A program made the translations under genes and the position numbers. 64,000 nucleotides of DNA from positions 214-64,213 of the forward strand of contig JAJQFU010000111.1 of NCBI GenBank assembly GCA_021200955.1, in the 5' to 3' direction. Source of the stretch: Clostridiales bacterium (GTDB taxonomy: Bacteria > Bacillota > Clostridia > Lachnospirales > CAG-274). Shown piece after piece: positions 43,341-64,000 of the stretch. The notes under the pieces were generated by a model. It searched no databases. It was given only the letters and a program-made list of their open reading frames with translations, and was not told the origin of the DNA. Numbering within the stretch: position 1 is the first letter of the stretch; every line of letters starts with the position of its first letter.

Positions 43341-43341
43341 T

Positions 43342-46012: not shown

Positions 46013-46786
46013 ATGAAATCAAAAAGTACCGAAAGAAAGCTGACTATAGCAACTGTTGTCATAATTTTTGCGGCATGGATTGCTGTTACAAACATAGGCA
46101 GTTTTTCCGAAACCATTATACCCTCGCCCCAAAGTGTTATACAAGCCTTTGTCAAAATAGTCAGAGACGGCTATAAAGGAAACACACTTATAACCCACAT
46201 TGCAACAAGTATGAGAAGGCTTATAATTGCCTATGCTCTCGTTGTTGTGACAGCCGTTCCCTTAGGTTTGTTAAGCGGCTATAATTCAAAGGTCAGGGCT
46301 GTATTGGAGACTATAATAGAGTTTTACAGACCTCTGCCCCCTCTTGCTTATTACACAATTTTGGTTTTGTGGATGGGCATTGATGAAAGTTCAAAGTTAG
46401 CTCTTTTATATCTTGCAGGCTTTGCCCCCATATACATAGCCTGTGTTTCGGGAGTTATGAGAATAAGGGCGGACTACATAAACGGAGCCTACACATTAGG
46501 AGCAAACAAAAGGCAGATATTCTTCTATGTAATCTTCCCGGCGGCTCTGACAGATATTTTCACAGGCTTAAGAACAGCTTTGGGCGTGGAATATACAACC
46601 CTTGTTGCGGCGGAAATGGTTGCCGCAACGGCAGGTATGGGCTGGCTTGTGCTTGATGCAAGCAATTATCTGCGAAGCGACATAGTATTTATGGGAGTAA
46701 TTATAATGGGAATTACGGGAATTTTACTTGATAAGATTATCCGTATTTTGGAAAACAGAATAGTTCACTGGAAAGGAAAGGCATAA
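46013..46786 (+). CDS. ABC transporter permease (NitT/TauT family), second system
   Basis: It is a multi-TM protein, paralogous by eye to the 38405-39172 product (for example PLPPLAYYTILVLWMGI versus PIPPIAWIPLAILWFGI). Confidence 0.85.
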   Translation: MKSKSTERKLTIATVVIIFAAWIAVTNIGSFSETIIPSPQSVIQAFVKIVRDGYKGNTLITHIATSMRRLIIAYALVVVTAVPLGLLSGYNSKVRAVLETIIEFYRPLPPLAYYTILVLWMGIDESSKLALLYLAGFAPIYIACVSGVMRIRADYINGAYTLGANKRQIFFYVIFPAALTDIFTGLRTALGVEYTTLVAAEMVAATAGMGWLVLDASNYLRSDIVFMGVIIMGITGILLDKIIRILENRIVHWKGKA

Positions 46787-46807
46787 AGCCTAAAAGGAGA
46801 AATAAAC

Positions 46808-47842: not shown

Positions 47843-47855
47843 GCAGGTGATGTAA

Positions 47856-48701
47856 GTGGCAGACGAATGGAAAGAAAAACTATATGAGCCTTCGGGAGAG
47901 CTTATAGCTTTAAATAATGTAAAGTATGATGATACCCTTATCTCAATAAAAGACGTTGATTTAGCCTATGCAGGTGTTTCCGGAGAGGATATTAAGGCAA
48001 TAGAGGACATTAACTTCAATATTTACAGAGGAGAGTTTGTCTGCGTTCTGGGTCCCTCGGGCTGCGGCAAAAGCACACTTCTTAAAATTCTTGCCGGCTT
48101 TATAAAGCCTACATCGGGAGTTGTTGAGCTTGACGGCAAAAAAATTGAGGGAACAGACTGGCACAGAGGTGTTGTATTTCAAAATCCCCCGCTGTTTGAA
48201 TGGTTCTCCGTAAGAGATAATGTAGCCTTCGGCCCCAAAATGAGGGGTATTCCCAAAGCAGAATATACAAGGCTTACAGATGAATATTTGGAAAAGGTAG
48301 GCTTATCGGACTTTGCCGACAAAAAAATATATGAGCTTTCAGGAGGTATGAAACAGAGAGTTTCAATAGCAAGAACTCTTATAAATGACCCCGAAATTCT
48401 TCTTATGGACGAGCCTTTCGGTGCTCTTGACGCTCTGACAAGAGAAAACGTTCAGGACTTAACCCGAAAAATATGGTGGAGCAGCGGAAAGACAATATTT
48501 TTTATAACCCACGATGTGGAAGAAGCTTTACTCTTAGGCTCAAGAATAATCGTCCTGAGCAAGCACCCCGGCAGAGTAATCGAGGATATTTCCGTAACCT
48601 TTTCAAGAGAAATTGCCGAAGGAGCCGGAACAGACATAAAATTCACCGATACCTTTTACAAATACAGAGAAAAACTTTTAAAGCTTATAAATTCACAATA
48701 A
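47856..48701 (+). CDS. ABC transporter ATP-binding protein, second system
   Basis: Walker A is GPSGCGKST, the signature is LSGGMKQR and Walker B is ILLMDEPFGALD. Confidence 0.9.
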   Translation: MADEWKEKLYEPSGELIALNNVKYDDTLISIKDVDLAYAGVSGEDIKAIEDINFNIYRGEFVCVLGPSGCGKSTLLKILAGFIKPTSGVVELDGKKIEGTDWHRGVVFQNPPLFEWFSVRDNVAFGPKMRGIPKAEYTRLTDEYLEKVGLSDFADKKIYELSGGMKQRVSIARTLINDPEILLMDEPFGALDALTRENVQDLTRKIWWSSGKTIFFITHDVEEALLLGSRIIVLSKHPGRVIEDISVTFSREIAEGAGTDIKFTDTFYKYREKLLKLINSQ

Positions 48702-48767: not shown

Positions 48768-51572
48768 ATGAAAATGAAAAAAATAACAGCAGCTTTTACA
48801 CTGTCGGCAATTTTGATTTCGTCGGTTTTTCCGCAGAATGTTTTTGCAGCCGGCTTTGCCGATGTAGCAGAAAATGCTTGGTATGCGGAAAGTGTGGATT
48901 ATGTAACCGACAATGGACTTATGGTTGGTATATCCGATAATGAGTTTGACCCCGACGGAATATTAACCAGAGGTATGTTTATCACTGTTCTTCACCGTTT
49001 GGAGGATTCTCCTCAGGCTGAAGAAAGCAGCGGTTTTACCGATGTAAATGAAAATGACTGGTTCTCTGCCGCTGTCAACTGGGGTGTTGAAAACGGTTTA
49101 ACCTCGGGAACAAGTTCAGACAGATTTGAACCGTATGGGTCACTGACAAGAGAACAGCTTGCAGTCTTTTTGCAGAGATATTATACGTTTAAGGGCGAAA
49201 ATACAGATAATACCGCTAAAGACGAGATTTCACTGTTTTCAGACCGATACAGCATCTCCGACTGGGCTGAAGATGCTGTTGCTTGGGCATATAATTCGGG
49301 AATTATTATAGGGGTTTCAGACAGCGAATTAAGCCCGAAAGGAATTGTTACAAGAGCGCAGACAGCGGTTATACTTTATAAAATAACCGGCGGAGAAGTC
49401 GGCGGCAAGTCAAAAGAAATTGATTCAGACAACTTATCAGACGATGAAACCGACAGTGAAGCACCAACGGAAGATGCTGTTTCCGAAACAACAACCGTAA
49501 AGAGAAGCGGAAGCTCAGGCGGAGGTTCAAGCAGCAGAAAAACTTCAACAACCGAAACAACCACCGAAGCGGTGGCAGAGGAAACAACCGAAGAATATAT
49601 AAACCTGTCAGACTATGAAAATACGCAGCTGTACTACAATGGTACGATTTATACGGTTGATGAAGATTATGAGGGTATATACGGCGATGTTCCCACTGCG
49701 GAATCGGTTTTGGTCGGCAACGGAAAAATTATTGCTGTAGCTTATACTGACAGCGAAAATGAAAAGCTGGAAAGAAGTGCCGAGCTTTACAATTCCAAAC
49801 AAATTAATTTAGACGGAAAAACAGTTGTCCCCGCTTTTCAGGACGCTCACAGCCATTTGGATATGGCAGATCAATATCCCGATGCAGGACCGGCAGCAGG
49901 AGTTACGGGTTACGATTCTTTGATAAGTGAAGGGAAAAAGGCATTACAGTCTTGGCTTGATGATAATCCCGAAATAACTTCAGGTTCGGCTTTGGTTACA
50001 GATGAAGCAGCCTCGGATTCGGCTGTTTCGGTAAGCTCTTACTGGTTTGTAACCCACGGATATGACAACACAGCATTTAAAGAAGACGGCTATGCCCACC
50101 CCACAAGGCAGATATTAGATGAAATTTCAACTGAATATCCTATTGTTTATATTCATACATCCGACCATATGGGTGTTGTAAATACGGCGGCATTAAAGCT
50201 TATAATCGAATCAGAGGAAGCACAGTCTGTTTACAGAACATATGTATATCCCAACTGGGACGGAATAGGCTTAACCCAGTCGGAAATAGCTTCGGGAATA
50301 GCAGACGGAACCTTTGACATTTGGGATCACTTTGACGATTTGACAGGGCTTTTAAGAGAAAACGGTTTTTATCAGCTTTACGGATATATGGGCGGACCCT
50401 ATGTTTTAGGCAACTCAGACGCCACTAAGACGGGAACAACCGAAGAAATTATAGCCCACGCAATGGAACTGTATGCAAGCTACGGCATTACCACAGGTGT
50501 AATAGGCGGCGGCAGCAGTGCGGCAAAAATTGCGGCAGTGGAAAGTCTTTATGAATCCGGAGAAGCAATTATTGATATACAGCATATGATGGGTTCTTTG
50601 GGAAGCTGGTTCGGAGAAGACGGCAGTGCCGGTCAAACCTACGAAAGTGGTTCAAAGGTAACAGGTGTTAAGATTTTTCAAGACGGCTCTCCCCAAGGCA
50701 AAACAGCATGGTTTTCCGTTGATGAAAATGACCCCGACGGAGCTAAGGGCGGCTATTATAAATTAGAGGGAGAAATAAGAACAGATGAGGATACATATTA
50801 TTGGGGTGAAGATAACAAAAAAATCGAAGATGATGCCTTGCTATCAGAGTTTGTTGAACTGATTGAAGCAAAGGTTCAGTTTACATCTCACTGCAACGGA
50901 ACAGGAGCAATTCAGCAGTTTATCGACAATTACGAGACCGCCTTAAAACAGGTTTACGGCGTAAGCGAGCTTACACAGGAAATTATTGATGAAGCAAAGG
51001 AAAATGTACGTCCTACAATTATTCACGCACAAACAGCAACAGCTGACCAAGTCAAAAAGTGCAGCGAACTGGGAATAAGTATTTCATTCTTTACAGATCA
51101 TGTGTATTATTTCGGCGATTATCATTTAAGCTCCACTCTGGGTCCCGTCAGAGGACAGACTATCAGCCCTATGGCAACAGCGTTGTCCTACGGCGATATT
51201 AATGTTACAATGCACCAAGACACACCTGTGGCAGTTCCCAATATGCTGTTCTCAATTTACAATGCTGTAAATCGTATAACAAGAGACGGTGAAGAAATAG
51301 GTCACGGAGCTGTGGTAAACGGCTATGAAACAACAGATGAAAGAATAGATGCCTATAATGCCCTTAAAGCAGTTACGATAAATTCCGCATGGCAGAATTT
51401 TGACGAAAATGAAAAGGGTTCGATAACTGAGGGCAAACAGGCAGATTTTGCGATTCTGAGTATAGACCCCCTCAGCCGGGAATTTTCAGAACTTGATACA
51501 GAAGCGGCAAGAACAGGCGCATTTGTGGTTCAGACAATTAATGACGGGAATACAGTCTATACATTAGAATAA
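48768..51572 (+). CDS. cell-surface (3x SLH domain) metal-dependent amidohydrolase-family protein
   Basis: It has a signal peptide and three SLH repeats (FADV..NAWYAESVDYV, FTDV..NDWFSAAVNW, FSDRYSISDWAEDAVAWA). An S/T/E-rich linker follows. The amidohydrolase motifs are FQDAHSHL, TSHCNGTG, IIHAQ, FFTDH and MHQDTP. Confidence 0.8.
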   Translation: MKMKKITAAFTLSAILISSVFPQNVFAAGFADVAENAWYAESVDYVTDNGLMVGISDNEFDPDGILTRGMFITVLHRLEDSPQAEESSGFTDVNENDWFSAAVNWGVENGLTSGTSSDRFEPYGSLTREQLAVFLQRYYTFKGENTDNTAKDEISLFSDRYSISDWAEDAVAWAYNSGIIIGVSDSELSPKGIVTRAQTAVILYKITGGEVGGKSKEIDSDNLSDDETDSEAPTEDAVSETTTVKRSGSSGGGSSSRKTSTTETTTEAVAEETTEEYINLSDYENTQLYYNGTIYTVDEDYEGIYGDVPTAESVLVGNGKIIAVAYTDSENEKLERSAELYNSKQINLDGKTVVPAFQDAHSHLDMADQYPDAGPAAGVTGYDSLISEGKKALQSWLDDNPEITSGSALVTDEAASDSAVSVSSYWFVTHGYDNTAFKEDGYAHPTRQILDEISTEYPIVYIHTSDHMGVVNTAALKLIIESEEAQSVYRTYVYPNWDGIGLTQSEIASGIADGTFDIWDHFDDLTGLLRENGFYQLYGYMGGPYVLGNSDATKTGTTEEIIAHAMELYASYGITTGVIGGGSSAAKIAAVESLYESGEAIIDIQHMMGSLGSWFGEDGSAGQTYESGSKVTGVKIFQDGSPQGKTAWFSVDENDPDGAKGGYYKLEGEIRTDEDTYYWGEDNKKIEDDALLSEFVELIEAKVQFTSHCNGTGAIQQFIDNYETALKQVYGVSELTQEIIDEAKENVRPTIIHAQTATADQVKKCSELGISISFFTDHVYYFGDYHLSSTLGPVRGQTISPMATALSYGDINVTMHQDTPVAVPNMLFSIYNAVNRITRDGEEIGHGAVVNGYETTDERIDAYNALKAVTINSAWQNFDENEKGSITEGKQADFAILSIDPLSREFSELDTEAARTGAFVVQTINDGNTVYTLE

Positions 51573-51624: not shown

Positions 51625-52890
51625 TCATGCCGATTTAAAGTTTTTAATAATTTTACAGGTTTTTTCTATATCTTCATTGCAGTGGGCGGCGGAGATAAAC
51701 ATGGCCTCAAACTGTGAGGGAGCAATATATATTCCGTTTTCCAAAAGGTATGAAAAAAATTCGGCATATTTTTTTGTGTCGGAGGAAAGAGCGTCATCAT
51801 AGTTTTCAACCTTTCTGTCTGTGAAGAAGCCGCAGAGAAGGGAACCGATCCGGTTTACACTTAAACCGATTTCTTTCAGTGCATTTTCAAGCCCGGCGGC
51901 TTTTCGGTCTATTTCGGCGTAAATGTTTTTGTTTTCAGAGAGAATTTTAAGTGCGGTGATTCCGGCTGTTGTGGCTATGGGATTACCCGAAAGGGTTCCT
52001 GCCTGATAGACCTTTCCTATGGGAGATATGCACTGCATAATTTCCCTTCTGCCGCCGTAAACTGCCATAGGCATACCGCCGCCTACAATTTTGCCCAAAG
52101 CCGTCATATCCGGCTTTATGCCGTAATACTCCTGTGCACCGCCTAAGCCCAAACGGAAACCGGTTATAACCTCGTCAAATATAAGAACGGAATTATATTT
52201 ATCCGTTATATTCCTTAAAAAGGTAAGAAAGCCCGGTTTAGGCAGAACAACTCCCATATTTGCCGCCACAGGTTCAACAATAATACAGGCAATTTCGTTT
52301 CCGTATTTTTCAAAAAGTTCTCTTACTGAATTTTCATCATTATATTCGGCAACAAGAGTGTTTTGAGTATATGACTTCGGCACTCCGTCACTGTCGGGAA
52401 CGGCTGATGTTAAAGCGGCTGAGCCTGCCTTTACAAGCAGACCGTCGGAGTGGCCGTGATAACAGCCTTTAAATTTAACTATCATGCCTCTGTCGGTATA
52501 TCCTCTTGCGGCCCTTATGGCGGACATCGTGGCTTCCGTTCCGGAATTTACCATTCGCATAACTTCAATTGAAGGCATAAGGCTTTTAATAAGTTCCGCA
52601 AGTTCAACCTCATTTCGTGTAGGTGCACCGAATGTCAATCCCTTATCGCAAGCGGCTTTTACCGCTTCGATTATTTTGGGGTGGCTGTGACCCAGTATAC
52701 CGGGACCCCATGAACACACATAATCTATATATTCATTTCCGTCAGCATCATAAATTTTATCGCCCTTTGCTCTGTCTATAAAAAGAGGTGTCCTTCCCAC
52801 AGCGGAAAAAGCCCTTACGGGGCTGTTTACCCCTCCGGGCATAAGGCTTACGGCTCGTTTGTACAGTTTCTTTGAAATTTCTTCTTTCAC
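51625..52890 (-). CDS. hemL: glutamate-1-semialdehyde 2,1-aminomutase
   Basis: It has PGGVNSPVRAF and the class-III aminotransferase fold. I chose the GTG at 52890, 7 nt after GGAG, which avoids an overlap with hemB. Confidence 0.9.
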   Translation of the reverse strand: MKEEISKKLYKRAVSLMPGGVNSPVRAFSAVGRTPLFIDRAKGDKIYDADGNEYIDYVCSWGPGILGHSHPKIIEAVKAACDKGLTFGAPTRNEVELAELIKSLMPSIEVMRMVNSGTEATMSAIRAARGYTDRGMIVKFKGCYHGHSDGLLVKAGSAALTSAVPDSDGVPKSYTQNTLVAEYNDENSVRELFEKYGNEIACIIVEPVAANMGVVLPKPGFLTFLRNITDKYNSVLIFDEVITGFRLGLGGAQEYYGIKPDMTALGKIVGGGMPMAVYGGRREIMQCISPIGKVYQAGTLSGNPIATTAGITALKILSENKNIYAEIDRKAAGLENALKEIGLSVNRIGSLLCGFFTDRKVENYDDALSSDTKKYAEFFSYLLENGIYIAPSQFEAMFISAAHCNEDIEKTCKIIKNFKSA

Positions 52891-52894
52891 AAAA

Positions 52895-53869
52895 TCACTC
52901 CTGTTCCTTTTCGGAAAGCCAGTCCGCAATATCCAAAGCGTGGTAGGTTATAATTATTTTTGCTCCGGCTCTTTTTATTGCCGTTATATTTTCCAAAACA
53001 ATTTTTTTCTCGTCTATCCAGCCCATATTTGCGGCGGCTTTAACCATAGAATATTCACCGCTGACGTTGTAGGCGGCTATCGTATGGTCAAAACGGACAC
53101 TTGCTTCTTTTATAACATCGAGATATGCAAGAGCAGGCTTAACCATAACAATATCGGCTCCTTCGTCAATGTCATATTGAATCTCTCTCATAGCCATTTT
53201 TGCATTGGCGCTGTCCATTTGATAAGACTTTCTGTCACCGAATTTCGGGGCGGAATCTGCGGCTTCTCTGAAAGGACCGTAATATGCCGAGGCATATTTG
53301 GCACTGTATGCCATAATAGGTGTATTTATAAAGTCCTTTTCATCAAGAGCCTGTCTTATTGCTCCTACTCTGCCGTCCATCATATCCGACGGAGCAATTA
53401 TATCTGCTCCTGCTTCAACAAGGCTTATTGACATTTTGCAAAGCAGCTTCAGCGTTTCGTCATTCAAAATATTCCCGTTCCTTACAAGTCCGCAGTGGCC
53501 ATGTGATGTATATTCGCAAAGACATACATCGGCTATAACGATTAAATCAGGATATTTTTCCTTAATATGCCTTACCGCTCTTTGAGTAACTCCGTCTTTA
53601 TTATAGGCTTCGCTTGCCTTTTCGTCCTTATAACCCGGTATTCCGAAAATAAGTATTGCCTTAATTCCCTTTCGGCTCACTCTTTCAAGCTCTTCGTCAA
53701 GCCTGTCCACCGAATACTGATAAATCCCCGGCATTGATTCAACGGCATTTTTTATATTCTCACCTTCGATTACAAATACAGGATAAACCAAATCCCTTAA
53801 ATCAATCTTGGTTTCCCTCACAAATGCTCTGATATTGGGGCTTGTTCTGAGCCTTCTCATTCTCTGCAT
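52895..53869 (-). CDS. hemB: porphobilinogen synthase (delta-aminolevulinate dehydratase)
   Basis: It has the motifs RRLRTSPNIRAFVRET, DVCLCEYTSHGHCG (Cys-rich metal site) and MVKPALAYLD. The start was chosen at the ATG that follows GGAGGA. Confidence 0.9.
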   Translation of the reverse strand: MQRMRRLRTSPNIRAFVRETKIDLRDLVYPVFVIEGENIKNAVESMPGIYQYSVDRLDEELERVSRKGIKAILIFGIPGYKDEKASEAYNKDGVTQRAVRHIKEKYPDLIVIADVCLCEYTSHGHCGLVRNGNILNDETLKLLCKMSISLVEAGADIIAPSDMMDGRVGAIRQALDEKDFINTPIMAYSAKYASAYYGPFREAADSAPKFGDRKSYQMDSANAKMAMREIQYDIDEGADIVMVKPALAYLDVIKEASVRFDHTIAAYNVSGEYSMVKAAANMGWIDEKKIVLENITAIKRAGAKIIITYHALDIADWLSEKEQE

Positions 53870-55232
53870 TTTCAATTTCCTCCAATTTCTTTATTATTCC
53901 TTCTGTGATGTATTCTTCGGCAATATAAGGGCTGTAACCATACTCCCCAAGCCTTTTTGCCGTAACCTCTCCTATGGCAATAATTTTTCCCTTAGGGGCA
54001 TATTTGCCGCAGTAAAAATCCACCGCAGAAGGACTTCCGAATATTATATAATCTGTGTTTGCTTCTCTGACATTGCTTAATTTTACATCATATATTTTAA
54101 CATCATCGTAGTTTTCGATATGTTTAAGCAAGTCCTCCGTTCCTTTTTCGGCTCTTAAAATCAGCTTTTTCCCCTTAAAGCCTGAAAGTGCCTTTGAAAG
54201 CTCCTCTGCTGTATATTTTTCGGGCATAACATCGGCATAAATTCCAAGCTTCGCCAAAGCTTCATAGGTTGACTTGCCTATAACGGCAAATTTTATGTCT
54301 GCAAGCCTTCTTATATCAATATGCTTTTCTCTTAAATATTCCCCGAATATATTTACACCTGCCGTACTTGTGAAAACAATGTATTCACAGCTTAAATCCA
54401 AATCAAAGCCATATTTTTTGACCTCAAGGGTTCCGCAGTCGAAAATATCATAGTTAAAAAGCCCTGTTTTAAGCCTTTCCTTAAAGCCGCAGGTGCCTAT
54501 TATTCCTACACTTTTCCTGTTGTATTTAAGCTTCATTTCGGCGGTTTTCCCTACAACAAAAACCGACGGCGGTTTAATTTCGTTTTCTTTAACGCATTTT
54601 TCCGCATTTTTAAGGCTTGTCCTGAATACTCTTTCGTTTTCCGTTCCGCCCTTTTCAATAAAAGCGGCAGGTGTGTTTTTATCCGCTCCGCCTTTTATCA
54701 GCCTTTCGGAAATAACCCCGGCATTTTTAACACCCATAAGAAAGACAAGAGTTCCTTTCATTTTTGCAAGAGCATCATAATTTACATTTTCTTCTTCGGC
54801 GGTATGGCCTGTTATAATATGTAAATCCTGACTTACCGCTCTGTGTGTAACAGGTATGCCGCAAAGCTCCGGAGCGGCTATAGCAGAGGTTATTCCCGGC
54901 ACAACCTCAAAAGGAATGTTGTTTTTTATGCACTCCTCAGCTTCCTCTCCTCCTCTGCCGAAAACAAAGGGGTCACCGCCTTTAAGCCTTACAACTCTGT
55001 CATATTTCCCTGCCATAGCTGTAATAAGGCTGTTTATTTCAGACTGCTTCATACTGTGGTTATCAGCTTCTTTACCGGCAAATATTTTAACGCAGTCTTT
55101 TTTTGCAAAATCAAGAAGCCTGTTATCTATAAGCCTGTCATAAATTATAACATCACTTTTCTTTATAAGCTCCGCTCCGTAAAGGCTTATATATTTATAA
55201 CTGCCTGTCCCTGCTCCCACCAAATAAACCAT
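53802..55232 (-). CDS. uroporphyrinogen-III C-methyltransferase / uroporphyrinogen-III synthase fusion (CobA-HemD)
   Basis: The N-terminus, VYLVGAGTGSYKYISLYG...VVRLKGGDPFVFGRGGEE, is SUMT-like. The C-terminal ~230 aa is HemD-like. Confidence 0.85.
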   Translation of the reverse strand: MVYLVGAGTGSYKYISLYGAELIKKSDVIIYDRLIDNRLLDFAKKDCVKIFAGKEADNHSMKQSEINSLITAMAGKYDRVVRLKGGDPFVFGRGGEEAEECIKNNIPFEVVPGITSAIAAPELCGIPVTHRAVSQDLHIITGHTAEEENVNYDALAKMKGTLVFLMGVKNAGVISERLIKGGADKNTPAAFIEKGGTENERVFRTSLKNAEKCVKENEIKPPSVFVVGKTAEMKLKYNRKSVGIIGTCGFKERLKTGLFNYDIFDCGTLEVKKYGFDLDLSCEYIVFTSTAGVNIFGEYLREKHIDIRRLADIKFAVIGKSTYEALAKLGIYADVMPEKYTAEELSKALSGFKGKKLILRAEKGTEDLLKHIENYDDVKIYDVKLSNVREANTDYIIFGSPSAVDFYCGKYAPKGKIIAIGEVTAKRLGEYGYSPYIAEEYITEGIIKKLEEIENAENEKAQNKPQYQSICEGNQD

Positions 55233-56533
55233 TATGTCTCACCTCTTGCCGAAGCCTTAAGCTTATCGGCCATTAAAGCCGCTGCTTTTTCGGCATTCTC
55301 TTTTCTTTCAATGACGGTGACTTTCTCCGTCTTTTCCCCGAAATAAGCCCCTTTTAATATAAGTGTATCAGCATTTATTTCGGAATAAACCCCTACGGGA
55401 AAATGACAGCCCATTCCCAGCCTTGTAACAACACCCCGTTCCGCAAGAAAGGAATAAAATGTGTCTTTATCGTTTATTTTCCTTAAAAGCTCATTAAATC
55501 TGCTGTTTTTCCTTCCTTCAACGGCAATAATTCCCTGACAGGGGGCAGGTATAAACTTATCTGTAGCCTGTATTTTAAAATCATATTTTTCATTTTCCAT
55601 AAGTCCGAGCCTTTTAAGCCCGGCGTAGGCAAGCACAACACCGTCATATTCGCCGCTTTCAATTTTTTTAAGTCTTGTTTCCACATTTCCCCTTATACCC
55701 TTGGCTTTGCATTTTATTTGGCGGCTTCGTCTTTCACTGCTTGTTCCCAAAACGGAATTTTCGTCCAAAATTCTGCCTTTCAGAGTTACAATAACATCAT
55801 TTGCCTTTTCTCTTTTAGGTGTGGCAATTATTTCAAGCCCCTCGCCCAAAACAACAGGCAGATCCTTGCCGCTGTGAACAGCTATATCTATTTTATCCTC
55901 AAGCAACGCTCTTTCAAGAGAACCGGTAAAGGCTCCTTTGCCGCCGAATTCATCAAGCCCCTTTGTTTGGTTTTCGTCGCCTTCTGTGGAAAACTCAGCA
56001 ATGTCGCAGATAATGTTTTTATCGACCGCTTTTATAAGTCCGACAGCAATTTCCGTCTGAATTTTTGCGAGCCTGCTTTTTCTCGTGCCTATTCTAATTA
56101 CATTTTTGTCCATAAACTCTGAAATCTCCTCTTTAAGCCTTTTTGACCTTTTGGGGTTGTTTTCACCGGAATTGACAGAAATAACCAAATTGTCCCGTTT
56201 TACGGACGCTCCGAAAATAAAGCTGCTTTCTTTAGCACTGTCGGCAATGTTTACAAATATACCTCTGCTTCTGCAAAGCCTGCCCACTTCTTTGTTTACG
56301 TATCTGTCATTTGTCGCTGCAATTACAATAAAAGCATTTTCAATATCGCTCTCGTCAAATTCCTTTTGAATGACTTCACAGCCCTCAAAGGAACACTTTA
56401 TCTCCGCCGCAACAACCTTAACTCTTGCCCCGAAAGAAATAAGTGTTTCCGCCTTTCTCTTTGCGACATTTCCGCCGCCTATAACAACGCAAGTCTTGTC
56501 TTTTATATCAATGAACATAGGAAAATATGCCAT
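55232..56533 (-). CDS. precorrin-2 dehydrogenase/sirohydrochlorin ferrochelatase (SirC/Met8-like) fused to hydroxymethylbilane synthase (HemC)
   Basis: The N-terminus, FPMFIDIKDKTCVVIGGGNVAKRKAETL, is a siroheme synthase N-domain. From about aa 155, IRIGTRKSRLAKIQTE marks the HemC start. Confidence 0.85.
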   Translation of the reverse strand: MAYFPMFIDIKDKTCVVIGGGNVAKRKAETLISFGARVKVVAAEIKCSFEGCEVIQKEFDESDIENAFIVIAATNDRYVNKEVGRLCRSRGIFVNIADSAKESSFIFGASVKRDNLVISVNSGENNPKRSKRLKEEISEFMDKNVIRIGTRKSRLAKIQTEIAVGLIKAVDKNIICDIAEFSTEGDENQTKGLDEFGGKGAFTGSLERALLEDKIDIAVHSGKDLPVVLGEGLEIIATPKREKANDVIVTLKGRILDENSVLGTSSERRSRQIKCKAKGIRGNVETRLKKIESGEYDGVVLAYAGLKRLGLMENEKYDFKIQATDKFIPAPCQGIIAVEGRKNSRFNELLRKINDKDTFYSFLAERGVVTRLGMGCHFPVGVYSEINADTLILKGAYFGEKTEKVTVIERKENAEKAAALMADKLKASARGET

Positions 56534-56535
56534 AA

Positions 56536-57594
56536 TCAGTCCCTCAAAATATTAATAAACTTTTCAAACTCTGCTGCCGTAAAACCGTCCCTCACTTTAT
56601 AAACAAGCTGTTCAAAGCTGTATTTGTTAAGTGAACTCAGTTCCCCTAAAAGAGAATGAAAATACATTTCCTTTTTAAGACCGTCAATCATTTCGGAAAT
56701 AATTAAATTTGCCTTATCCTTTTCTCTTATTTTGATTTCGCAGTTTTTCTTTGAAACCGCTTCAAAATAATCTATATTATAAATTTCATTGTCCGAAATA
56801 TCTTCGTCAATATCTCTCGGTACAGCCAAGTCTATGAAAATTTTATTTTTAACACCATATCGCAAAACCTCTCCCGATGTAACCGTATAATGGGGAGAGG
56901 CAGTAACGCTTATTACAATATCATTTTCTTTCATATATTTATATCTGTCTTTAAAAGCTATATAATTTACATTCGAAATATTGACATAATCGGCATTGTG
57001 TTCCCTGATTGTAGCGGTAATGCTTATATCACCGTAGGAAAGAAGGTCTTTAGCCACAATAGAGCCGGTTTTGCCGCTTATGCCTATAATAAGTACATTT
57101 TTAAGACCTTTCGAATGAACAAAAGCGGCGGTCAGAGTTCCTATTGAAACAGATGATTTTGACATAAGGGTTTCCGTCTTTATTTTTTTTGCGGCGGTTA
57201 TTGCTCCTTTAAAAAAAGTTTTTATTTCATATGAAAGACTAACTTTTTCGAGGGCGGCATAGAAAGCCTCTTTTACCTGACCTAAAATTTCATCCTCGCC
57301 TAAAATTTTAGATTCCAAGCCGCAGGCAACCCTGTAAAGATTGAGTATTGCCCCGTTTCCCGAATAAATTTTCACATATTTTTTAAATTCATCATAGGGA
57401 AAGCCTTTAAAGCTGCAGATTTCTCTTGCGGTTTTGTTTATGTCACAGTCCGAAAAGTAAAATTCGGTTCGGCAGCAGGTTGAAAGTATAACCATATTGT
57501 CTTTTATAAACTTTCCCTGCTCATCTTCACTGAAAGAAAGCTTTTCCCTTATGTCAACATCTGCTTTTCTGCAGCTTATACTTATGCAATGCAC
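56536..57594 (-). CDS. hemA: glutamyl-tRNA reductase
   Basis: It has ILSTCCRTEFY (catalytic Cys region) and an NADPH-binding IIGISGKTG. The start was moved to the GTG at 57594, after AGAGGTG. The longer ORF would overlap cysK by about 200 nt. Confidence 0.8.
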   Translation of the reverse strand: MHCISISCRKADVDIREKLSFSEDEQGKFIKDNMVILSTCCRTEFYFSDCDINKTAREICSFKGFPYDEFKKYVKIYSGNGAILNLYRVACGLESKILGEDEILGQVKEAFYAALEKVSLSYEIKTFFKGAITAAKKIKTETLMSKSSVSIGTLTAAFVHSKGLKNVLIIGISGKTGSIVAKDLLSYGDISITATIREHNADYVNISNVNYIAFKDRYKYMKENDIVISVTASPHYTVTSGEVLRYGVKNKIFIDLAVPRDIDEDISDNEIYNIDYFEAVSKKNCEIKIREKDKANLIISEMIDGLKKEMYFHSLLGELSSLNKYSFEQLVYKVRDGFTAAEFEKFINILRD

Positions 57595-57622
57595 CGTATC
57601 ACCTCTTTTAAGGAAACAATAA

Positions 57623-58555
57623 TTACTCCGCAAAAAGCTGAGTTGACAAATACCTGTCTCCTGTGTCGGGAAGAAGAACAACAATAGCCTTGCCCCTGTT
57701 TTCCGGTCTTTTGGCAAGCTCAGCTGCCGCCCATACAGCCGCACCGGAGGAAATTCCAACAAGAAAACCCTCTGTATGTGCAATTTTTCTTCCTGTTTCA
57801 AAAGCGGCTTCGTTTTCAACCTTTATAATTTCATCATAAACCTCTGTGTTAAGGGTTTCGGGGACAAAACCTGCCCCTATGCCCTGAATTTTATGAGGTC
57901 CGGCTTTTCCCTCAGACAAAACAGGAGAACCGGCAGGCTCAACAGCCACAATTTTAACATTCGGGTTTTTGCTCTTTAAATATTCCCCGACACCTGTAAT
58001 TGTTCCCCCTGTGCCTACTCCGGCAACAAATATGTCAACAGTTCCGTCTGTGTCTCTCCATATTTCGGGACCTGTTGTTTTCTTGTGATATTCGGGGTTT
58101 GCAGGGTTTGTAAACTGGCTTGGTATAAAGCTGTCCTCTGTTTCATCGGCAATTTCCTGTGCTTTAATAATTGCTCCTCTCATACCCTTAGCTCCGTCTG
58201 TCAAAACAAGCTCCGCACCATAGGCTTTAAGTAAATTTCTTCTTTCAATGCTCATAGTCTCCGGCATAGTTATTATAATTTTGTAGCCCCTTGCCGCCGC
58301 AACGGAAGCAAGCCCGATGCCCGTATTTCCCGATGTAGGCTCTATAATTACTGTGTTGGGGGTTATTTTTCCCTCTTTTTCCGCTTTGACAATCATCCCT
58401 ACGGCAATTCTGTCTTTAACAGAGCCGGCAGGGTTAAAATATTCCAGTTTGGCAAGCAAAACCGCTTCCAAATTATTTGCCTTTGAGAAATTACCCAGTT
58501 CAAGCAAAGGCGTATTCCCTATAAGGTCTGTAATCCTTTTATAAATTTTAGCCAT
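57623..58555 (-). CDS. cysK: cysteine synthase A (O-acetylserine sulfhydrylase)
   Basis: It has [24 protein letters not shown] (PLP Lys) and the GTGGT loop. Confidence 0.9.
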
Positions 58556-58649
58556 TTCAATTCCTCCCTATTTATATTCCGGTTCGGGCGTGGCGAGAGC
58601 AACACCTCTCCGTCACCCTACGGGTGACACCTCCCCTTAAAAGGGGAGG

Positions 58650-59696
58650 CTATATTACATAACTGTAATCTCCGAACATTCTGTATTCCGACGGAGGCAC
58701 TTCATATTCCTTTTTGAAAAGTCTTGAAAAATAACCCATATCCTTATAGCCCAGCCTTTCGGATATGTCCGTTATTTTAAGCTTAGTCTTTTGTAAAAGA
58801 TAAGCCGCTCTTTTCATTTTAACAACCGTTACATAATCCACAAATCTGATTTTTGTATGTGCCGTAAAAACCGTGCTTAAATATGTACTGTTTATGTGAA
58901 GCTCTGCTGCAATATCCTTTTGACGAAGGCTGCTTTCCGGACTGCTGAGAATATACTGTATAACCTCCCGAATTTTTTCATCGTCTGCCTTAGGAGAAAG
59001 TCTGCAAAACTCACCAAACAAATCTCCTAAAATTTTACGGTATCTGTCCTTATATGTATTTTGATCTCCCTCGTTTATGCTGTCCAAATTATAAAAGGTG
59101 TGAGGGTCAATATACAAATCAAGCCACTCGTAGATATTGAAAAGATCTTCAATTACACTGCTGCATATGCTCCTTGCCTTTTTGTCGGCGACTATAACAT
59201 CAAATTCATCATCGTAAATTTTATCAAGCATTTCGTCTATATACCTGTGGATATTATAATTTCTGTCCTTGAAAAAAGCGAGTATGTTTTCTTTATAACA
59301 TACCTCCTCTGCTCCGCCTTCATAGCTTTCGCTTTTTATTCGGGTAAACATCTGATAAAACTGCGCTTCGTCAAAGGGCATTACAAAATAATCATAAGCA
59401 CCTAAAATTATGCCCTGTCTGGCATAGTTAAAGTCGGAAAATCTGCTGCACAAAACAACTCTGCTGCAAAGTCCCTCAGCTTTAGCTGTTCTTAAAAGCT
59501 GAAGTCCGTCCATACCTGTTATTCTTATTTCCGTAATAACAAGGTCATATTTTTTCTGCTTCATTTTATTGTGGGCTGTAATTCCGTCATTTGCTATGTC
59601 TTCAATTACAAATTCCGAAGCCTCTCCCCAAATGTGCAAAGCTTCTACTTGCTTTAACAGTTCGTCGCTGTCATATACAAATAATGTTCTGTACAT
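58650..59696 (-). CDS. AraC-type regulator with an atypical (pseudo-)receiver domain
   Basis: It has an N-terminal CheY-like fold, but the acceptor position is Glu (YDLVITEIRITGMDG) and the conserved Lys is Met (YFVMPF). The C-terminus is an AraC HTH, GYKDMGYFSRLFKKEYEVPPSEYR. Confidence 0.8.
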   Translation of the reverse strand: MYRTLFVYDSDELLKQVEALHIWGEASEFVIEDIANDGITAHNKMKQKKYDLVITEIRITGMDGLQLLRTAKAEGLCSRVVLCSRFSDFNYARQGIILGAYDYFVMPFDEAQFYQMFTRIKSESYEGGAEEVCYKENILAFFKDRNYNIHRYIDEMLDKIYDDEFDVIVADKKARSICSSVIEDLFNIYEWLDLYIDPHTFYNLDSINEGDQNTYKDRYRKILGDLFGEFCRLSPKADDEKIREVIQYILSSPESSLRQKDIAAELHINSTYLSTVFTAHTKIRFVDYVTVVKMKRAAYLLQKTKLKITDISERLGYKDMGYFSRLFKKEYEVPPSEYRMFGDYSYVI

Positions 59697-59724
59697 TAAG
59701 TCAGCCCCCTTTCTTTTATCGGGC

Positions 59725-60972
59725 TTAAAAAGGCAGTTTTTCGTTTACATACTCAAGAGCCGATAAAAAGTCCTCAGTTAAGTCTCTTATATCCTCAATA
59801 CCAACACTTACCCTTATTAAGTCATCATAAACACCGGCTTTAGCCTGTTCGGCTTCGCTGCTGTGGGCATATATCGTAGATGATGGGTGAATAACAAGGG
59901 TTTTCGTGTCACCAATGTTTGTTATGTTAACTGCATATTTAAGGCTGTTTATAAAGGCAAAGGCTCTTTCCTTTGTGTAAAGCCTTAAGGTTAATATTCC
60001 GCCGCCTTTGCCGCCCAAAATATCATTTGCTTTTGTATAATAGGGGCTGCTTTTAAGCATAGGATAATTTACCTCTCTTATACCGGCTTTGTTTTCAAGT
60101 GCCTCGGCAAGAGCCAAGGCATTTTTACAGTGTCTGTCCATTCTCAAGCCGAGAGTTTCAAGCCCCAAAGAGTTAAAGTAAGCATTCATAGGGCTTAAAC
60201 AGCAGCCGAAATTTCTGAAAGTATCATTTCTGAGCTTTGCGGTAAAGGCAAATTTGCCCAGCTTTAAATATTCTCCCATAACAGGATATTTTTCTTCCGT
60301 CCACTTAAAATTGCCGCTGTCGGTAATTATTCCGCTTATAGAATTGCTGCTGCCGTTTATATATTTCGATGAGGAATTTATTATAATATCCGCCCCTAAG
60401 TCAATGCCTCTTAAAATATAGGTGGTAGCTGTGGTGTTGTCCAATATAAATGGCAAGCCGTAACTGTGGATTAAATCAGCCGCCGCTTTAATGTCTGTTA
60501 CGTCTAATTTCGGGTTTCCTATTGTTTCGGCAAAAACAGCCTTTGTTTTGGAATTTACAAGACCTTCAAGTTCGTCTTTTGTTATATCCTCAACTATATG
60601 AACCTTAATACCCAGCTTTTCAATGTCCTTAAAAAAATCAAGAGTACCGCCGAAAACGGAAGCCTTTGAAATAATTTCGTCACCTGCCCCTAAAATGTTC
60701 AGCAAAGCAACGGAAATAGCCGCCATTCCCGATGAAACCGCAACAGAAGCAAGACCGTTTTCCAAATAAGTTATTCTGCTTTCAAATGAGGCAACTGTAG
60801 GGTTGCTGATTCTGCTATAGGCATAGCCGGGAGCTTTATTGTGAAAAATTTTTTCTATTTCCTCGGCGGTTTTCTGTCCGAAAGCACTTGACTGATATAT
60901 GGGTATAAGCGTCGCCCCTGTATTTGTATCGCCTTCAAAATTGCCATGAAGTAAAGCTGTATCATACTTCAT
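59725..60972 (-). CDS. metY: O-acetylhomoserine sulfhydrylase (aminocarboxypropyltransferase)
   Basis: It is a Cys/Met-metabolism PLP enzyme with YSRISNPT, a SSSKYINGS Lys region and a length of 415 aa. Confidence 0.8.
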   Translation of the reverse strand: MKYDTALLHGNFEGDTNTGATLIPIYQSSAFGQKTAEEIEKIFHNKAPGYAYSRISNPTVASFESRITYLENGLASVAVSSGMAAISVALLNILGAGDEIISKASVFGGTLDFFKDIEKLGIKVHIVEDITKDELEGLVNSKTKAVFAETIGNPKLDVTDIKAAADLIHSYGLPFILDNTTATTYILRGIDLGADIIINSSSKYINGSSNSISGIITDSGNFKWTEEKYPVMGEYLKLGKFAFTAKLRNDTFRNFGCCLSPMNAYFNSLGLETLGLRMDRHCKNALALAEALENKAGIREVNYPMLKSSPYYTKANDILGGKGGGILTLRLYTKERAFAFINSLKYAVNITNIGDTKTLVIHPSSTIYAHSSEAEQAKAGVYDDLIRVSVGIEDIRDLTEDFLSALEYVNEKLPF

Positions 60973-60983
60973 AAAACCACTCC

Positions 60984-61793
60984 TTAAAATGCTCCGCCGC
61001 AGCTGTTCATCTCATAGTCGGTCAACTCATGAATTGTGGGGTTATCTCCGCATATGGGGCAGTCCTTAACCTTTTCGGGCAGCTTAATTTTTCTGAACTC
61101 CATGGTCAAAGCATTATATGTAAGCAAATAACCCGTTAAAAGTTCACCCTTTCCCAAAAGATACTTTATGGCTTCCATAGCCTGAAGGCTGCCTATAACT
61201 CCGCCCATTGCCCCTACAACTCCCGCCTGTCTGCAGGTAGGAACAGCGTCAGCCGGCGGAGGATTTTTAAATACACAGCGGTAACATGGACCTCTTCCGG
61301 GAACATATGTCATAAGCTGACCCTGAAATCTTATAATTCCGGCATGAGAAAAAGGCTTTTCAGCCATAACGCAGGCGTCATTTATAAGAAATTTAGCCGG
61401 AAAATTATCTGTTCCGTCAATAACAAAGTCATAATCCTTAATTAAATCGGCTATATTTTCGGCACTGACAAAGGTTTCATAGGGTATAACCTTTACATCG
61501 GGATTAATAGCTTCCATTGTTTCCTTTGCGGAAAGCACCTTTGCCTTTCCGACATCAGCCGTTGTGTGTACAATCTGCCTTTGGAGATTTGACAGGTCAA
61601 CCTCGTCTGCATCCGCAACACCTATTGTTCCCACTCCTGCAGCGGCAAGATACATTGCCGCCGGGGAACCCAAGCCGCCGGCCCCTATAATAAGAACCCT
61701 TGAATTAAGCAACTTTTTCTGACCCTTTGAGCCTATTTCTTTCAATATAATGTGTCTTGAATATCTTTGCATTTGTTCATAAGTAAATTCCAT
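60984..61793 (-). CDS. ThiF/MoeB/HesA-family sulfur-carrier adenylyltransferase
   Basis: It has YSRHIIL..IG..GQ, IIGAGGLGSP and LQRQI. The CxxC pairs are CYRC and CPIC. Confidence 0.85.
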   Translation of the reverse strand: MEFTYEQMQRYSRHIILKEIGSKGQKKLLNSRVLIIGAGGLGSPAAMYLAAAGVGTIGVADADEVDLSNLQRQIVHTTADVGKAKVLSAKETMEAINPDVKVIPYETFVSAENIADLIKDYDFVIDGTDNFPAKFLINDACVMAEKPFSHAGIIRFQGQLMTYVPGRGPCYRCVFKNPPPADAVPTCRQAGVVGAMGGVIGSLQAMEAIKYLLGKGELLTGYLLTYNALTMEFRKIKLPEKVKDCPICGDNPTIHELTDYEMNSCGGAF

Positions 61794-62002
61794 TAACAGA
61801 GTCCTCCTCCCATAAAGTAAAGAAATTCAACTGCATCGCCGTCCTTTAAAACAATGCCTTCGAAATCCTTTGCACTGTAAAGCTCATCATTCACAGACCC
61901 TGTTACATATTCGGGAGTCTCGACCTTTTCCGCTTCAACAAGCTCCTTAAGGGTCAAACCATCTTTATATTCCTTAATTTTTCCGCTTACCGTAATTTTC
62001 AT
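61793..62002 (-). CDS. ThiS/MoaD-family sulfur carrier protein with a C-terminal GG-LC extension
   Basis: It is 69 aa with a beta-grasp-like pattern and ends FLYFMGGGLC. Its start overlaps the TusA-like stop and its stop overlaps the ThiF-like start. Confidence 0.7.
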   Translation of the reverse strand: MKITVSGKIKEYKDGLTLKELVEAEKVETPEYVTGSVNDELYSAKDFEGIVLKDGDAVEFLYFMGGGLC

Positions 62003-62256
62003 TCTTCCTCACCTTTCTCAACAATTAAATCATATGTTCCGTCATCATTTGCCGTAAGTTTTAAAACCCTGTGGCCTTCCTCTTTCATTGAACGGGGTAC
62101 ATTTTGCAAGGGCTCGCCGCCGTTCATATGTACGGAAAGAATTTGCCCTGTTTCAAGCTCTTCAATAGCCACCTTTGCCTTAACAAAGGTTACGGGGCAT
62201 ACAACATCTGTTATATCCACATAATCATCTATTTTAATATCATTTGCCGAAGCCAT
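61999..62256 (-). CDS. TusA/SirA-like sulfurtransferase
   Basis: It is 85 aa, with DITDVVCPVTFVKAKVAIEEL matching the CP-x-P/T region of TusA-family proteins. Confidence 0.65.
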   Translation of the reverse strand: MASANDIKIDDYVDITDVVCPVTFVKAKVAIEELETGQILSVHMNGGEPLQNVPRSMKEEGHRVLKLTANDDGTYDLIVEKGEEE

Positions 62257-63109
62257 AATAAGCCTCCTTTATTGTTTTTACAAACTCACCTTTTCCGACC
62301 CTTTCAATTGTAAATCTGAAACGCTCTCCGGGGTTTGCATGATTCTTAAAGAAATCCACCGCTGCATCTATTACAACAAAAAGCTGTTCTTTACTGTTGA
62401 TAATCGGTATAATTTCCTCGCCTTTCCAAACAGTATTTCCGAAAAGACCGCCGAAAGATACTATATAGCCTTCGTTATTTTCCCATGCATCAACAGGACA
62501 GGCTTTTGTACATCTTCCGCAGTAGTTGCACTTATCCTCATTTACAATAATTTTGCCGCCTTCCGTTGTTATTGCCTTAACCCGACATATATTTTCACAA
62601 ACTCCGCAGCTTATACATTTATCAGCTATCCACTTAACCTCTATGCCGCCTTTTATGCCTATGTCGTTTTCCTCTGACTTAAGACAGTTGTTTTGACACC
62701 CCGTCACGCCGAATTTGAACTTGTGAGGCAAATCCATAGCAAAAAATCTTTCACTTATTTCCTCTGCAAGTCCGTATGTATCTATACAGCCGCTTGGGCA
62801 GACAGCCTTTCCCTGACAAGAAGTAACGGTTCTTACCCTCGCTCCGCAGACACCCGGCTCACAGTCTCCCTCGGCAAGCTTTGTCTTAACCTCGTCAATA
62901 TCATCAAGCCTTATAAAAGGTATTTCAACTCCCTGTCTTGAAGTAAGATGAACATAGCCCTCACCGTATTTTTCCGCCGTTTCAGCTATGGTTAAAAGCT
63001 GATTTGAGGTCAGATGACCGCCTACAACCTTTAAACGCAGAGAAAACCTGTTTTTTTGTTTTTGCCGCATAAAGCCGCCTTTTTTTAAAACAGCATAGTC
63101 AACAGCCAT
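62240..63109 (-). CDS. small siroheme-type sulfite reductase with a ferredoxin insert (AsrC/Dsr-like, stand-alone)
   Basis: The siroheme-FeS Cys motifs are SCQGKAVC and TGCQNNC. There are two 4Fe-4S motifs, CISCGVCENIC and CNYCGRCTKACP. The start was chosen at the ATG 7 nt after AAGGAGGG. Confidence 0.7.
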   Translation of the reverse strand: MAVDYAVLKKGGFMRQKQKNRFSLRLKVVGGHLTSNQLLTIAETAEKYGEGYVHLTSRQGVEIPFIRLDDIDEVKTKLAEGDCEPGVCGARVRTVTSCQGKAVCPSGCIDTYGLAEEISERFFAMDLPHKFKFGVTGCQNNCLKSEENDIGIKGGIEVKWIADKCISCGVCENICRVKAITTEGGKIIVNEDKCNYCGRCTKACPVDAWENNEGYIVSFGGLFGNTVWKGEEIIPIINSKEQLFVVIDAAVDFFKNHANPGERFRFTIERVGKGEFVKTIKEAYYGFGK

Positions 63110-63122
63110 ATTGAAACCCTCC

Positions 63123-63533
63123 TTAAATATATTCAATCGGCTCTTCCTCCGAAATATTTCCGTTAATCCTGAATGACTTTAAAACAGGATTTTTCTCATC
63201 CTGAAGTGATAAAATCATATAGCTTGCATTTTTATCATAAGCAAGTCTCTTGTCCTCGTCGGAAGGTCTTGAAGGGCTTTCCGGGTGAGAATGAAAGGTT
63301 CCCAAAGGAACAAGCCCCTTCTTCCTCATATACTTAACCGCTTCAAGCTGATCCTTAGGGTTCATTGAAAAATGCTCCCTTGAGTGATCAATATTTTCAA
63401 GCACGTATATTTCCCTAACAATCTTTATTTCCTCTGTCTGCGTTCCCCCTATAAGCCCGCAGATTTCCTCCGGTCTGCCTTTTCTTCCGGCAGCAATTAT
63501 TTCATCATAAAATTTTCTCGGAAGCTTAATCAC
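63123..63533 (-). CDS. JAMM/MPN+ metalloprotease (Mec+/HcyD-like)
   Basis: It has EICGLIGG and the JAMM motif HSHPESPSRPSDED. Confidence 0.8.
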   Translation of the reverse strand: MIKLPRKFYDEIIAAGRKGRPEEICGLIGGTQTEEIKIVREIYVLENIDHSREHFSMNPKDQLEAVKYMRKKGLVPLGTFHSHPESPSRPSDEDKRLAYDKNASYMILSLQDEKNPVLKSFRINGNISEEEPIEYI

Positions 63534-63561
63534 TTTAAACCCTCCATTGCTATGTATTGTT

Positions 63562-64000
63562 TCAAACGCTTATATTAAGCAGCTTCGCAGCCGTGTTCAT
63601 TCTTTTATCATTTAAAATATATTCCGAAAAAACATAAAGCCCCGCAAGAAGCCCTCTGTCGGAAATCGTTTCGGAGGCAATTGTTCCTTTGTTTATAACT
63701 CCGCTCTTTTTCCCTTTTATAAATATATCGTAAATACCGGTACACCTGTATTTTACGCAAATATTCTTTTCGGGTATGTAAAATTCTCCGCAGAACGACA
63801 GTTTAAAAGGTTCTCCCTGTGTTTTTATTTTTTCACCTGTTTTAACAAACATTTCACTGCTTCCTAAATGGTTTCTTATTACAAATCCGCCGGTATTTTC
63901 GGCAATGTCATAAATAACCCGACCTTTTAAGTCGCATATATATTTGCTTCTTTCAAGCAAGCCTTTATATTTTATTCTGTAAATAATTAATCCGTCATCA
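63562..64000 (-). CDS. hypothetical protein (5' end probably beyond the window)
   Basis: The frame stays open to the window edge, upstream of the TTG at 63960. I recognise no motif. It is co-directional with the JAMM gene, 28 nt away. Confidence 0.35.
   Translation of the reverse strand, partial: DDGLIIYRIKYKGLLERSKYICDLKGRVIYDIAENTGGFVIRNHLGSSEMFVKTGEKIKTQGEPFKLSFCGEFYIPEKNICVKYRCTGIYDIFIKGKKSGVINKGTIASETISDRGLLAGLYVFSEYILNDKRMNTAAKLLNISV

Follow-up and report, generated by a model that had tools for sequence, protein, structure and literature searches.

A 64,000-nt stretch (the window) of the draft genome of an uncultured gut Clostridiales bacterium, positions 214-64213 of a 65,199-bp contig (JAJQFU010000111.1), contains a minus-strand array of 14 genes for siroheme synthesis, sulfite reduction and carrier-based sulfur transfer, and a neighbouring plus-strand locus predicted to cleave sulfonates. 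Together, these genes very probably constitute a self-contained anaerobic sulfur-assimilation supercluster of three modules, a reading in which every step is drawn from homology and genome context. The source genome is a 2.5-Mb draft in 157 contigs, 99.4% complete and with 41% G+C. The nearest public loci come from metagenome-assembled genomes whose labels are Clostridiales, Lachnospiraceae, Ornithomonoglobus and Gallispira; isolates named Lapin are among them.

In the proposed pathway, two ATP-binding cassette (ABC) systems would import taurine, isethionate or other sulfonates. A Toa-like enzyme would transaminate taurine, a TauF-like enzyme would reduce the product to isethionate, and a glycyl radical enzyme (GRE) of the IslA/B type would cleave isethionate to acetaldehyde and sulfite. 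HemA, HemL, HemB, HemC, HemD, CobA and a CysG-N-like dehydrogenase/chelatase domain would make siroheme. A 289-aa reductase would convert sulfite to sulfide with the aid of a siroheme-[4Fe-4S] centre plus two further [4Fe-4S] clusters, with electrons most likely supplied by reduced ferredoxin, and CysK would combine sulfide with O-acetylserine to form cysteine. In parallel, a JAMM protease would trim the Leu-Cys tail off a ThiS-like carrier, and a ThiF-like E1 would adenylate the exposed glycine end. The carrier thiocarboxylate would then be formed with sulfur arriving either as free sulfide or via a persulfide on the TusA cysteine. MetY would join the thiocarboxylate to O-acetylhomoserine, and the JAMM protease would release homocysteine from the carrier. 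A pseudo-receiver AraC protein presumably controls the gene set.

From its first gene to its last, the array contains the following features (window positions, all on the minus strand):

63562 to about 64087, past the window end (87 nt beyond), minus: unassigned open reading frame (ORF), the first gene; at most 174 aa (776-1300 in locus L008)
63123-63533, minus: JAMM/MPN+ metalloprotease, HcyD-like (Prok-JAB, 82.6 bits)
62240-63109, minus: stand-alone small siroheme sulfite reductase, 289 aa (NIR_SIR_ferr, NIR_SIR and two Fer4)
61999-62256, minus: TusA/SirA-like sulfur-relay protein (TusA, 63.3 bits)
61793-62002, minus: ThiS-like ubiquitin-fold sulfur carrier, HcyS-type (ThiS, 34.7 bits; TIGR01683, 53.6 bits)
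60984-61793, minus: ThiF/MoeB-type E1-like adenylyltransferase, HcyF-like, 269 aa (ThiF, 296.6 bits)
59725-60972, minus: MetY, O-acetylhomoserine sulfhydrylase family (Cys_Met_Meta_PP, 361.8 bits)
58650-59696, minus: AraC-family regulator with a degenerate (pseudo-)receiver (Response_reg and HTH_18)
58556-58649, minus: 94-nt spacer with two 8-bp GC hairpins and no U tail
57623-58555, minus: cysteine synthase A, CysK (TIGR01139, 471.2 bits; cut-off 350.95)
56536-57594, minus: glutamyl-tRNA reductase, HemA (GlutR_N and Shikimate_DH)
55232-56533, minus: CysG-N/Met8p-like precorrin-2 dehydrogenase::HemC fusion (NAD_binding_7 at 6-109; Porphobil_deam at 146-344)
53802-55232, minus: CobA/SirA::HemD fusion, uroporphyrinogen-III C-methyltransferase/synthase (TP_methylase, 161 bits; HEM4, 102 bits)
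52895-53869, minus: porphobilinogen synthase, HemB (ALAD, 498.7 bits)
51625-52890, minus: glutamate-1-semialdehyde aminomutase, HemL, the last gene (Aminotran_3, 252 bits)

The ORF listing places all 14 ORFs on the minus strand, from 51625 to past the window end, with gaps of no more than 94 nt. The initial annotation had described the same co-directional array with gaps of up to about 95 nt, and its gene names and order hold in Pfam and NCBIfam scans, which agree on each name. Starts were refined by ribosome-binding sites for the reductase (63109), hemA (57594), hemB (53869) and hemL (52890), in each case giving a shorter ORF than the longest possible one. After this refinement the genes overlap or lie 0-28 nt apart, with the 94-nt spacer between the regulator and cysK as the single exception. 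The JAMM protease, E1, MetY, CysK and the reductase all retain their catalytic motifs.

The core of the array, comprising the JAMM protease, reductase, TusA, ThiS-like carrier, ThiF-like E1 and MetY, is by its predicted gene content the type 4e neighbourhood, which has already been described. The Wolinella version of this system, studied by Krishnamoorthy and Begley in 2011, reportedly makes homocysteine from the carrier thiocarboxylate. As defined by Iyer, Burroughs and Aravind in 2006 (PMC1779556), neighbourhood "4e" combines a ThiS- or MoaD-like protein, JAB, E1, SirA (TusA), a sulfite reductase, an O-acetylhomoserine sulfhydrylase and sulfate-activation genes. It was reported in Wolinella, Geobacter and several Firmicutes; its E1 always lacks a rhodanese domain, and SirA is always present. 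According to a passage in PMC8191291, citing Tran et al. (PMC3176619), Wolinella MetY uses the thiocarboxylated carrier. In the present array, a capped Gly-Gly carrier, a rhodanese-free E1 with TusA, an intact JAB protease, a reductase and a sulfhydrylase occur in one string. The sulfate-activation set does not: there is no PAPS_reduct match above the cut-off in the genome or the window, and hence no CysH or CysD.

The carrier ends in FMGGG followed by Leu-Cys, and 14 carrier orthologs keep EFLYFMGGG before unrelated tails of 1-7 residues, a variability that is just what obligatory trimming by the JAMM protease predicts. The JAMM metal site is intact, with the motif HSHPESPSRPSDED at 81 and Glu22. 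E1 consists of a ThiF domain alone, with GAGGLG, CYRC and CPIC motifs and no rhodanese domain. The tusA gene directly follows the reductase gene in every locus compared, even where other genes are shuffled; the last 17 nt of the reductase gene double as the start of tusA, and the TusA motif DITDVVCP(V/I/M)TFVKAK is unchanged in 16 orthologs. MetY scores 421.5 bits with TIGR01326 (cut-off 495), has its pyridoxal phosphate (PLP) lysine in SSSK at 200, and finds MetY enzymes as its best solved structures. The match to type 4e (PMC1779556) and the FMGGG core with a tail in need of trimming thus support the earlier reading of these genes as a thiocarboxylate set. A role of the carrier and E1 in thiamine or molybdopterin synthesis was considered and rejected, since the gene context is conserved and the carrier has its tail. 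Contig C91 (4538-5317, minus strand) has another ThiF-like gene, 76% identical to the one in the array, which stands alone with no carrier or JAMM gene near it.

It could be argued that a general haem/cysK operon, a ThiS/ThiF pair of the thiamine or molybdopterin type and a separate reductase have come together here by chance. The carrier does pass the NCBI ThiS model (53.6 versus 37.45 bits), E1 passes a MoeB subfamily model, the genome has the 76%-identical ThiF paralog, and a structured spacer precedes cysK. Downstream of the regulator and cysK, moreover, relatives differ, carrying either haem genes or Ssu and GRE genes. However, the genes for the reductase, TusA, carrier, E1, JAMM protease and MetY keep their order and adjacency in at least 15 Clostridia loci, including one from a cultured isolate. 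Because the same order recurs so widely, the arrangement is beyond chance. The carrier tail requires a JAMM protease, no other consumer of the haem-gene products was found in the genome, and the presence of hemB and of the reductase coincide in the genus. Chance juxtaposition is accordingly most improbable, and the genome survey has already largely refuted it.

The reductase in this cluster is a single NIR_SIR_ferr/NIR_SIR unit with an inserted two-cluster ferredoxin. Its ATG start at 63109 is preceded by an AGGAGG site, and its length equals that of a 289-aa cluster representative. Residues C98, C104, C138 and C142, the basic residues R25, R58, K130 and K132, and two CxxCxxCxxxC motifs are all present. 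The group III Dsr-LP scheme of Susanti and Mukhopadhyay (PMC3448663) comprises Cx5C...Cx3C ligands for siroheme-[4Fe-4S], four Arg/Lys residues, and peripheral and additional [4Fe-4S] clusters, all of which the reductase displays. Among solved structures it matches Fsr 7NP8 best, over residues 350-614 (E 2e-37, 264 residues aligned), and the AsrC model TIGR02912 gives 150.6 bits against a cut-off of 324.1. The protein is a predicted bacterial group III Dsr-LP, nearer to the C-terminal half of Fsr than to AsrC. An earlier comparison with AsrC drew on the siroheme motifs and the two-cluster insert; AsrC identity is rejected, given the TIGR02912 score and the failure to find AsrA. The same annotation had noted the missing AsrA partner, and indeed there is no match to AsrA (TIGR02910) in the array or genome-wide; AsrB was not searched for separately. 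Fsr identity does not apply either, as the N-terminal F420H2-oxidase (FrhB-like) half is not present and the 289 residues match the Fsr C-terminal half only.

Gut Clostridia encode numerous close homologs of 286-287 aa, annotated merely as "4Fe-4S binding protein". Homologs in Omnitrophota and Planctomycetia are short forms of about 240 aa that lack the ferredoxin insert. Fusions of the reductase to TusA were absent from the loci compared. In the nearest relative (L023, 1343-2279), the reductase is 98% identical and is split into ORFs of 181 and 137 aa; the same two pieces occur in a genome of the same genus (G037). The split in L023 reflects either an inactivating frameshift or an assembly error.

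A different role for the reductase has to be considered, namely that its main task is to detoxify sulfite or to act as a fermentative electron sink. In such a scheme, similar to those of Bilophila or AsrABC, taurine would be used for nitrogen or carbon, sulfite would be dumped as H2S, and biosynthesis would be a side benefit. The reductase falls in a Dsr-like branch with AsrC and the detoxifying Fsr (PMC3448663), and according to a 2026 preprint (PMC13081988), the release of taurine is linked in gut bacteria to the respiration of sulfite. Were taurine to serve as a nitrogen source, the GRE would yield large amounts of sulfite, which is toxic. Against this, the reductase gene is located inside the biosynthetic string (carrier, E1, JAMM protease, MetY and CysK) in every Clostridia locus, and in one locus (L019) the same back end follows assimilatory sulfate-activation genes. 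A genome search identified this reductase as the sole NIR_SIR protein, and no AsrA, DsrAB or second NIR_SIR protein was found. A mainly detoxifying or respiratory function is thus unlikely, and assimilation of sulfite into cysteine and homocysteine remains the preferred reading.

The haem genes appear to serve the same end. Genes are present for HemA, HemL, HemB, HemC, HemD, an S-adenosylmethionine (SAM) methyltransferase and a precorrin-2 dehydrogenase, as needed for siroheme. In the source genome, neither URO-D/HemE nor an AhbA/B-type siroheme decarboxylase was found; control genomes returned the expected matches in each absence search. The only TP_methylase genes in the genome are cobA and one unrelated gene, which argues that there is no corrin pathway. 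Siroheme is predicted to be the only tetrapyrrole that the organism can make or use. These absences, together with the single NIR_SIR protein, agree with the initial annotation in dedicating the haem genes to the reductase cofactor; later haem genes elsewhere in the genome, which would have spoken for a general role, were looked for and none was found.

The distribution of hemB points in the same direction. In the source genus it occurs in exactly four of 10 genomes, those with the reductase, and on the same contig. Across the family survey of 72 genomes it is present in all 19 that have the reductase, and outside the source genus hemB occurs in the family without the reductase too. Orthologs of hemL follow hemB in L021 and L023. 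In Omnitrophota and Planctomycetia, hemA-hemL is linked independently to a small reductase, metY and cysK, and in an Anaerostipes assembly haem genes are linked to these three genes in a different order.

The dehydrogenase::HemC fusion scores 109.7 bits with TIGR01470, above the cut-off. Its N-terminal domain, of about 145 residues, lacks the C-terminal part of the CysG-B/Met8p module and is closer to CysG 1PJQ (86.7 bits) than to SirC 3DFZ (61.4 bits). The domain, previously named sirC, is nearer to bifunctional CysG and so may insert iron as well. The chelatases CbiX and CbiK were not found in the source genome, and the CysG-N-like domain is the one candidate there for the ferrochelatase.

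The source of sulfite would be the sulfonate locus, which converges on the array:

37385-48701, plus: convergent sulfonate locus with, in order, SsuABC-type importer, GRE, activase, TauF-like reductase, Toa-like aminotransferase and TauCAB importer
39967-42447, plus: IslA/IseG-type glycyl radical sulfite-lyase with RIAGY and GCAEC motifs; activase next door

Among solved structures, the GRE matches IslA 7KQ3 at 1200 bits, IseG 5YMR at 1186 and HpsG 6LON at 1081; it also scores 1497 with the NCBI HpsG model (cut-off 1000). The substrate may be isethionate or dihydroxypropanesulfonate, and the IslA and HpsG types both release sulfite. The aminotransferase is closest to the taurine:2-oxoglutarate aminotransferase Toa 6JIX (521 bits), and the TauF-like alcohol dehydrogenase has a single strong solved relative, 6JKO (433 bits). 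Since there is no CysH/CysD-type enzyme in the genome, the neighbouring taurine locus is the only predicted source of sulfite. In Clostridium butyricum, work by Xing et al. in 2019 reportedly established that taurine is imported, transaminated and reduced to isethionate, from which radical C-S cleavage frees sulfite for sulfur supply. A passage in PMC13081988, citing Xing et al. 2019, likewise refers to taurine sulfur assimilation via IseG in that species.

Between the taurine importer and hemL lies a gene for a 934-aa protein (48768-51572, plus strand) with three SLH domains and an Amidohydro_3 domain, the Pfam family of taurine-selective metal-dependent bile salt hydrolases (PMC13081988). 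Orthologs that are 83% identical and a 47% homolog occur in unrelated (housekeeping) contexts, and stand-alone homologs are 30-36% identical. It was considered as a surface taurine-conjugate hydrolase feeding the route; the unrelated contexts of the orthologs do not support this. The GRE locus, once described as directly beside the array, is indeed its neighbour, but it is convergent and set apart from hemL by this 2.8-kb gene for an SLH-anchored amidohydrolase.

In the family survey, the reductase is present in all 12 GRE-positive genomes and in seven of 60 GRE-negative ones (Fisher p = 3e-9, uncorrected for shared ancestry). The co-occurrence spans seven genera, and in seven of the 12 genomes both genes are on the same contig, 3-20 kb apart. 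In L010, L015, L022 and the cultured Aminipila butyrica (L062), the back end is contiguous and co-directional with an Ssu importer and the GRE. In the complete genome of A. butyrica, CP048649.1 258571-279431 reads Trx-JAB-reductase-TusA-carrier-E1-MetY-regulator-CysK-SsuABC-GRE-activase. In a relative, L019, the genes preceding this back end are those for a sulfate importer, an AprA-like protein, CysD and CysN. These sulfate genes in place of sulfonate genes suggest that the back end is modular and its front ends interchangeable. An integrated route from sulfonate to amino acids, as initially proposed, is therefore supported by a GRE nearest to IslA/IseG, the Toa and TauF neighbours, the absence of PAPS_reduct and the co-occurrence with the reductase in 12 of 12 genomes.

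Several observations weigh against so unified a reading. Seven genomes have the reductase without the GRE, so the back end does not depend on the GRE. The GRE locus is convergent, on the opposite strand and 9 kb from the end of the array; here the two are at most co-regulated, not co-transcribed. MetY does not particularly resemble the Wolinella enzyme (3RI6 ranks only fourth among its solved structures), and with no sequence mark of thiocarboxylate use in MetY, that use is indicated by context alone. The iron-insertion step is without a clearly assigned enzyme. The structured 94-nt spacer before cysK is a possible processing site and may split the array into two transcripts. Finally, the absences reported for the source genome are drawn from a draft assembly of 157 contigs.

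Other details of the array bear on its regulation and extent. With its PLP lysine in SVKDR and a score above the TIGR01139 cut-off, CysK is a canonical enzyme, implying production of free sulfide. Contig C59 (3699-4625) carries another cysK, 72% identical. The regulator's receiver has a degenerate acidic pocket, and Glu or Gln stands in place of the acceptor Asp in each of the eight full-length orthologs; this marks it as a conserved pseudo-receiver. The sequence separating the regulator gene from cysK folds at -38.3 kcal/mol (z -2.85), and no terminator-like site was called within it. In Aminipila this spacer measures 45 nt; the element is thus not conserved. The likely GTG start of hemA is 28 nt after the cysK stop.

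At the other end, the unassigned first ORF has no Pfam or NCBIfam match even at E 10 and, among the loci compared, is conserved only in L023 (91%) and L010 (37%). Its membership in the pathway is uncertain. In Aminipila a thioredoxin gene occupies its place. Thioredoxin or thioredoxin-reductase-like genes are found inside the cluster in relatives (L062 9268-9582, L063 1508-1825 and L019 13077-14030). No Rfam match reaches the gathering score in the window, and a sub-threshold match to Clostridiales-1 (36.7 bits) lies just past its end. This element is a dispersed repeat of about 260 nt, with at least 25 full or partial copies on other contigs of the genome. The copy directly upstream of the array's first ORF is at 64299-64559 of the contig (C107), about 85-345 nt past the window end (L008 1300-1560). 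As a dispersed repeat that is absent from four related loci, it was rejected as an array-specific riboswitch or leader.

A more specific role for TusA can be entertained. The reductase may hand partly or fully reduced sulfur to the invariant TusA cysteine, much as DsrAB loads DsrC, and the TusA persulfide may then sulfurate the E1-bound carrier adenylate, so that homocysteine synthesis would draw on no free sulfide pool. This is suggested by the adjacency of the reductase and TusA in every locus, the 17-nt overlap of their genes, and the thioredoxin and thioredoxin-reductase genes in relatives' clusters. A canonical, sulfide-using CysK in the same array argues against it, as does the Wolinella carrier, which is reportedly loaded with plain sulfide in vitro. 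Such channelling is doubtful at present. If true, it would give TusA a role not known from experiment and explain the rhodanese-free E1.

Each of these modules is known, and the combination alone is new; in the library searched, no paper was found that joins a sulfonate GRE to a carrier-thiocarboxylate route. Taurine and isethionate are abundant in the gut, and discussion of their sulfur usually centres on harmful H2S formed via Bilophila. This cluster and those like it in many gut Clostridia, among them the cultured Aminipila butyrica, indicate that fermenters may route sulfonate sulfur into their own cysteine and methionine. It would also be a clean natural case of an entire tetrapyrrole pathway kept for one cofactor of one enzyme. 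The system lends itself to work on which electron donor free-standing Dsr-like reductases use, what TusA does, and which enzyme is the missing siroheme chelatase.

The closest known systems each cover a part of the cluster. Fsr 7NP8, the group III Dsr-LPs and AsrC share with the reductase the NIR_SIR_ferr and NIR_SIR unit, the siroheme-[4Fe-4S] centre, the four basic residues that bind substrate and the inserted two-cluster ferredoxin. In contrast to Fsr and AsrC, the protein here is a free-standing one of 289 aa, without an F420H2-oxidase half or an AsrA partner, and always with TusA next to it. Siroheme synthesis follows the CysG, Met8p and SirABC routes in combining CobA-type methylation with subsequent NAD-dependent dehydrogenation. 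It differs from them in having a dehydrogenase-like domain shortened to about 145 residues and joined to HemC, a CobA::HemD fusion, and no SirB/CbiX/CbiK chelatase in the source genome.

The Wolinella HcyS/HcyF/HcyD/MetY/Sir system likewise strings together a capped Gly-Gly carrier, a rhodanese-free E1, JAB, SirA/TusA, a sulfite reductase and an O-acetylhomoserine sulfhydrylase. Unlike Wolinella and type 4e, the present genome lacks a sulfate transporter, ATP sulfurylase, APS kinase and PAPS reductase, both in this region and elsewhere. Its sulfite is predicted to come instead from a sulfonate-cleaving glycyl radical enzyme, and the core is extended by CysK, the AraC pseudo-receiver regulator and the entire siroheme pathway. 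With the C. butyricum taurine cluster and its Toa/TauF/IslAB (IseGH) enzymes, the common ground is the series of taurine-to-sulfite steps in a strictly anaerobic fermenter. Here, by contrast, the predicted sulfite-consuming side is found in the same neighbourhood, and would operate via a carrier-protein route with a dedicated cofactor pathway.

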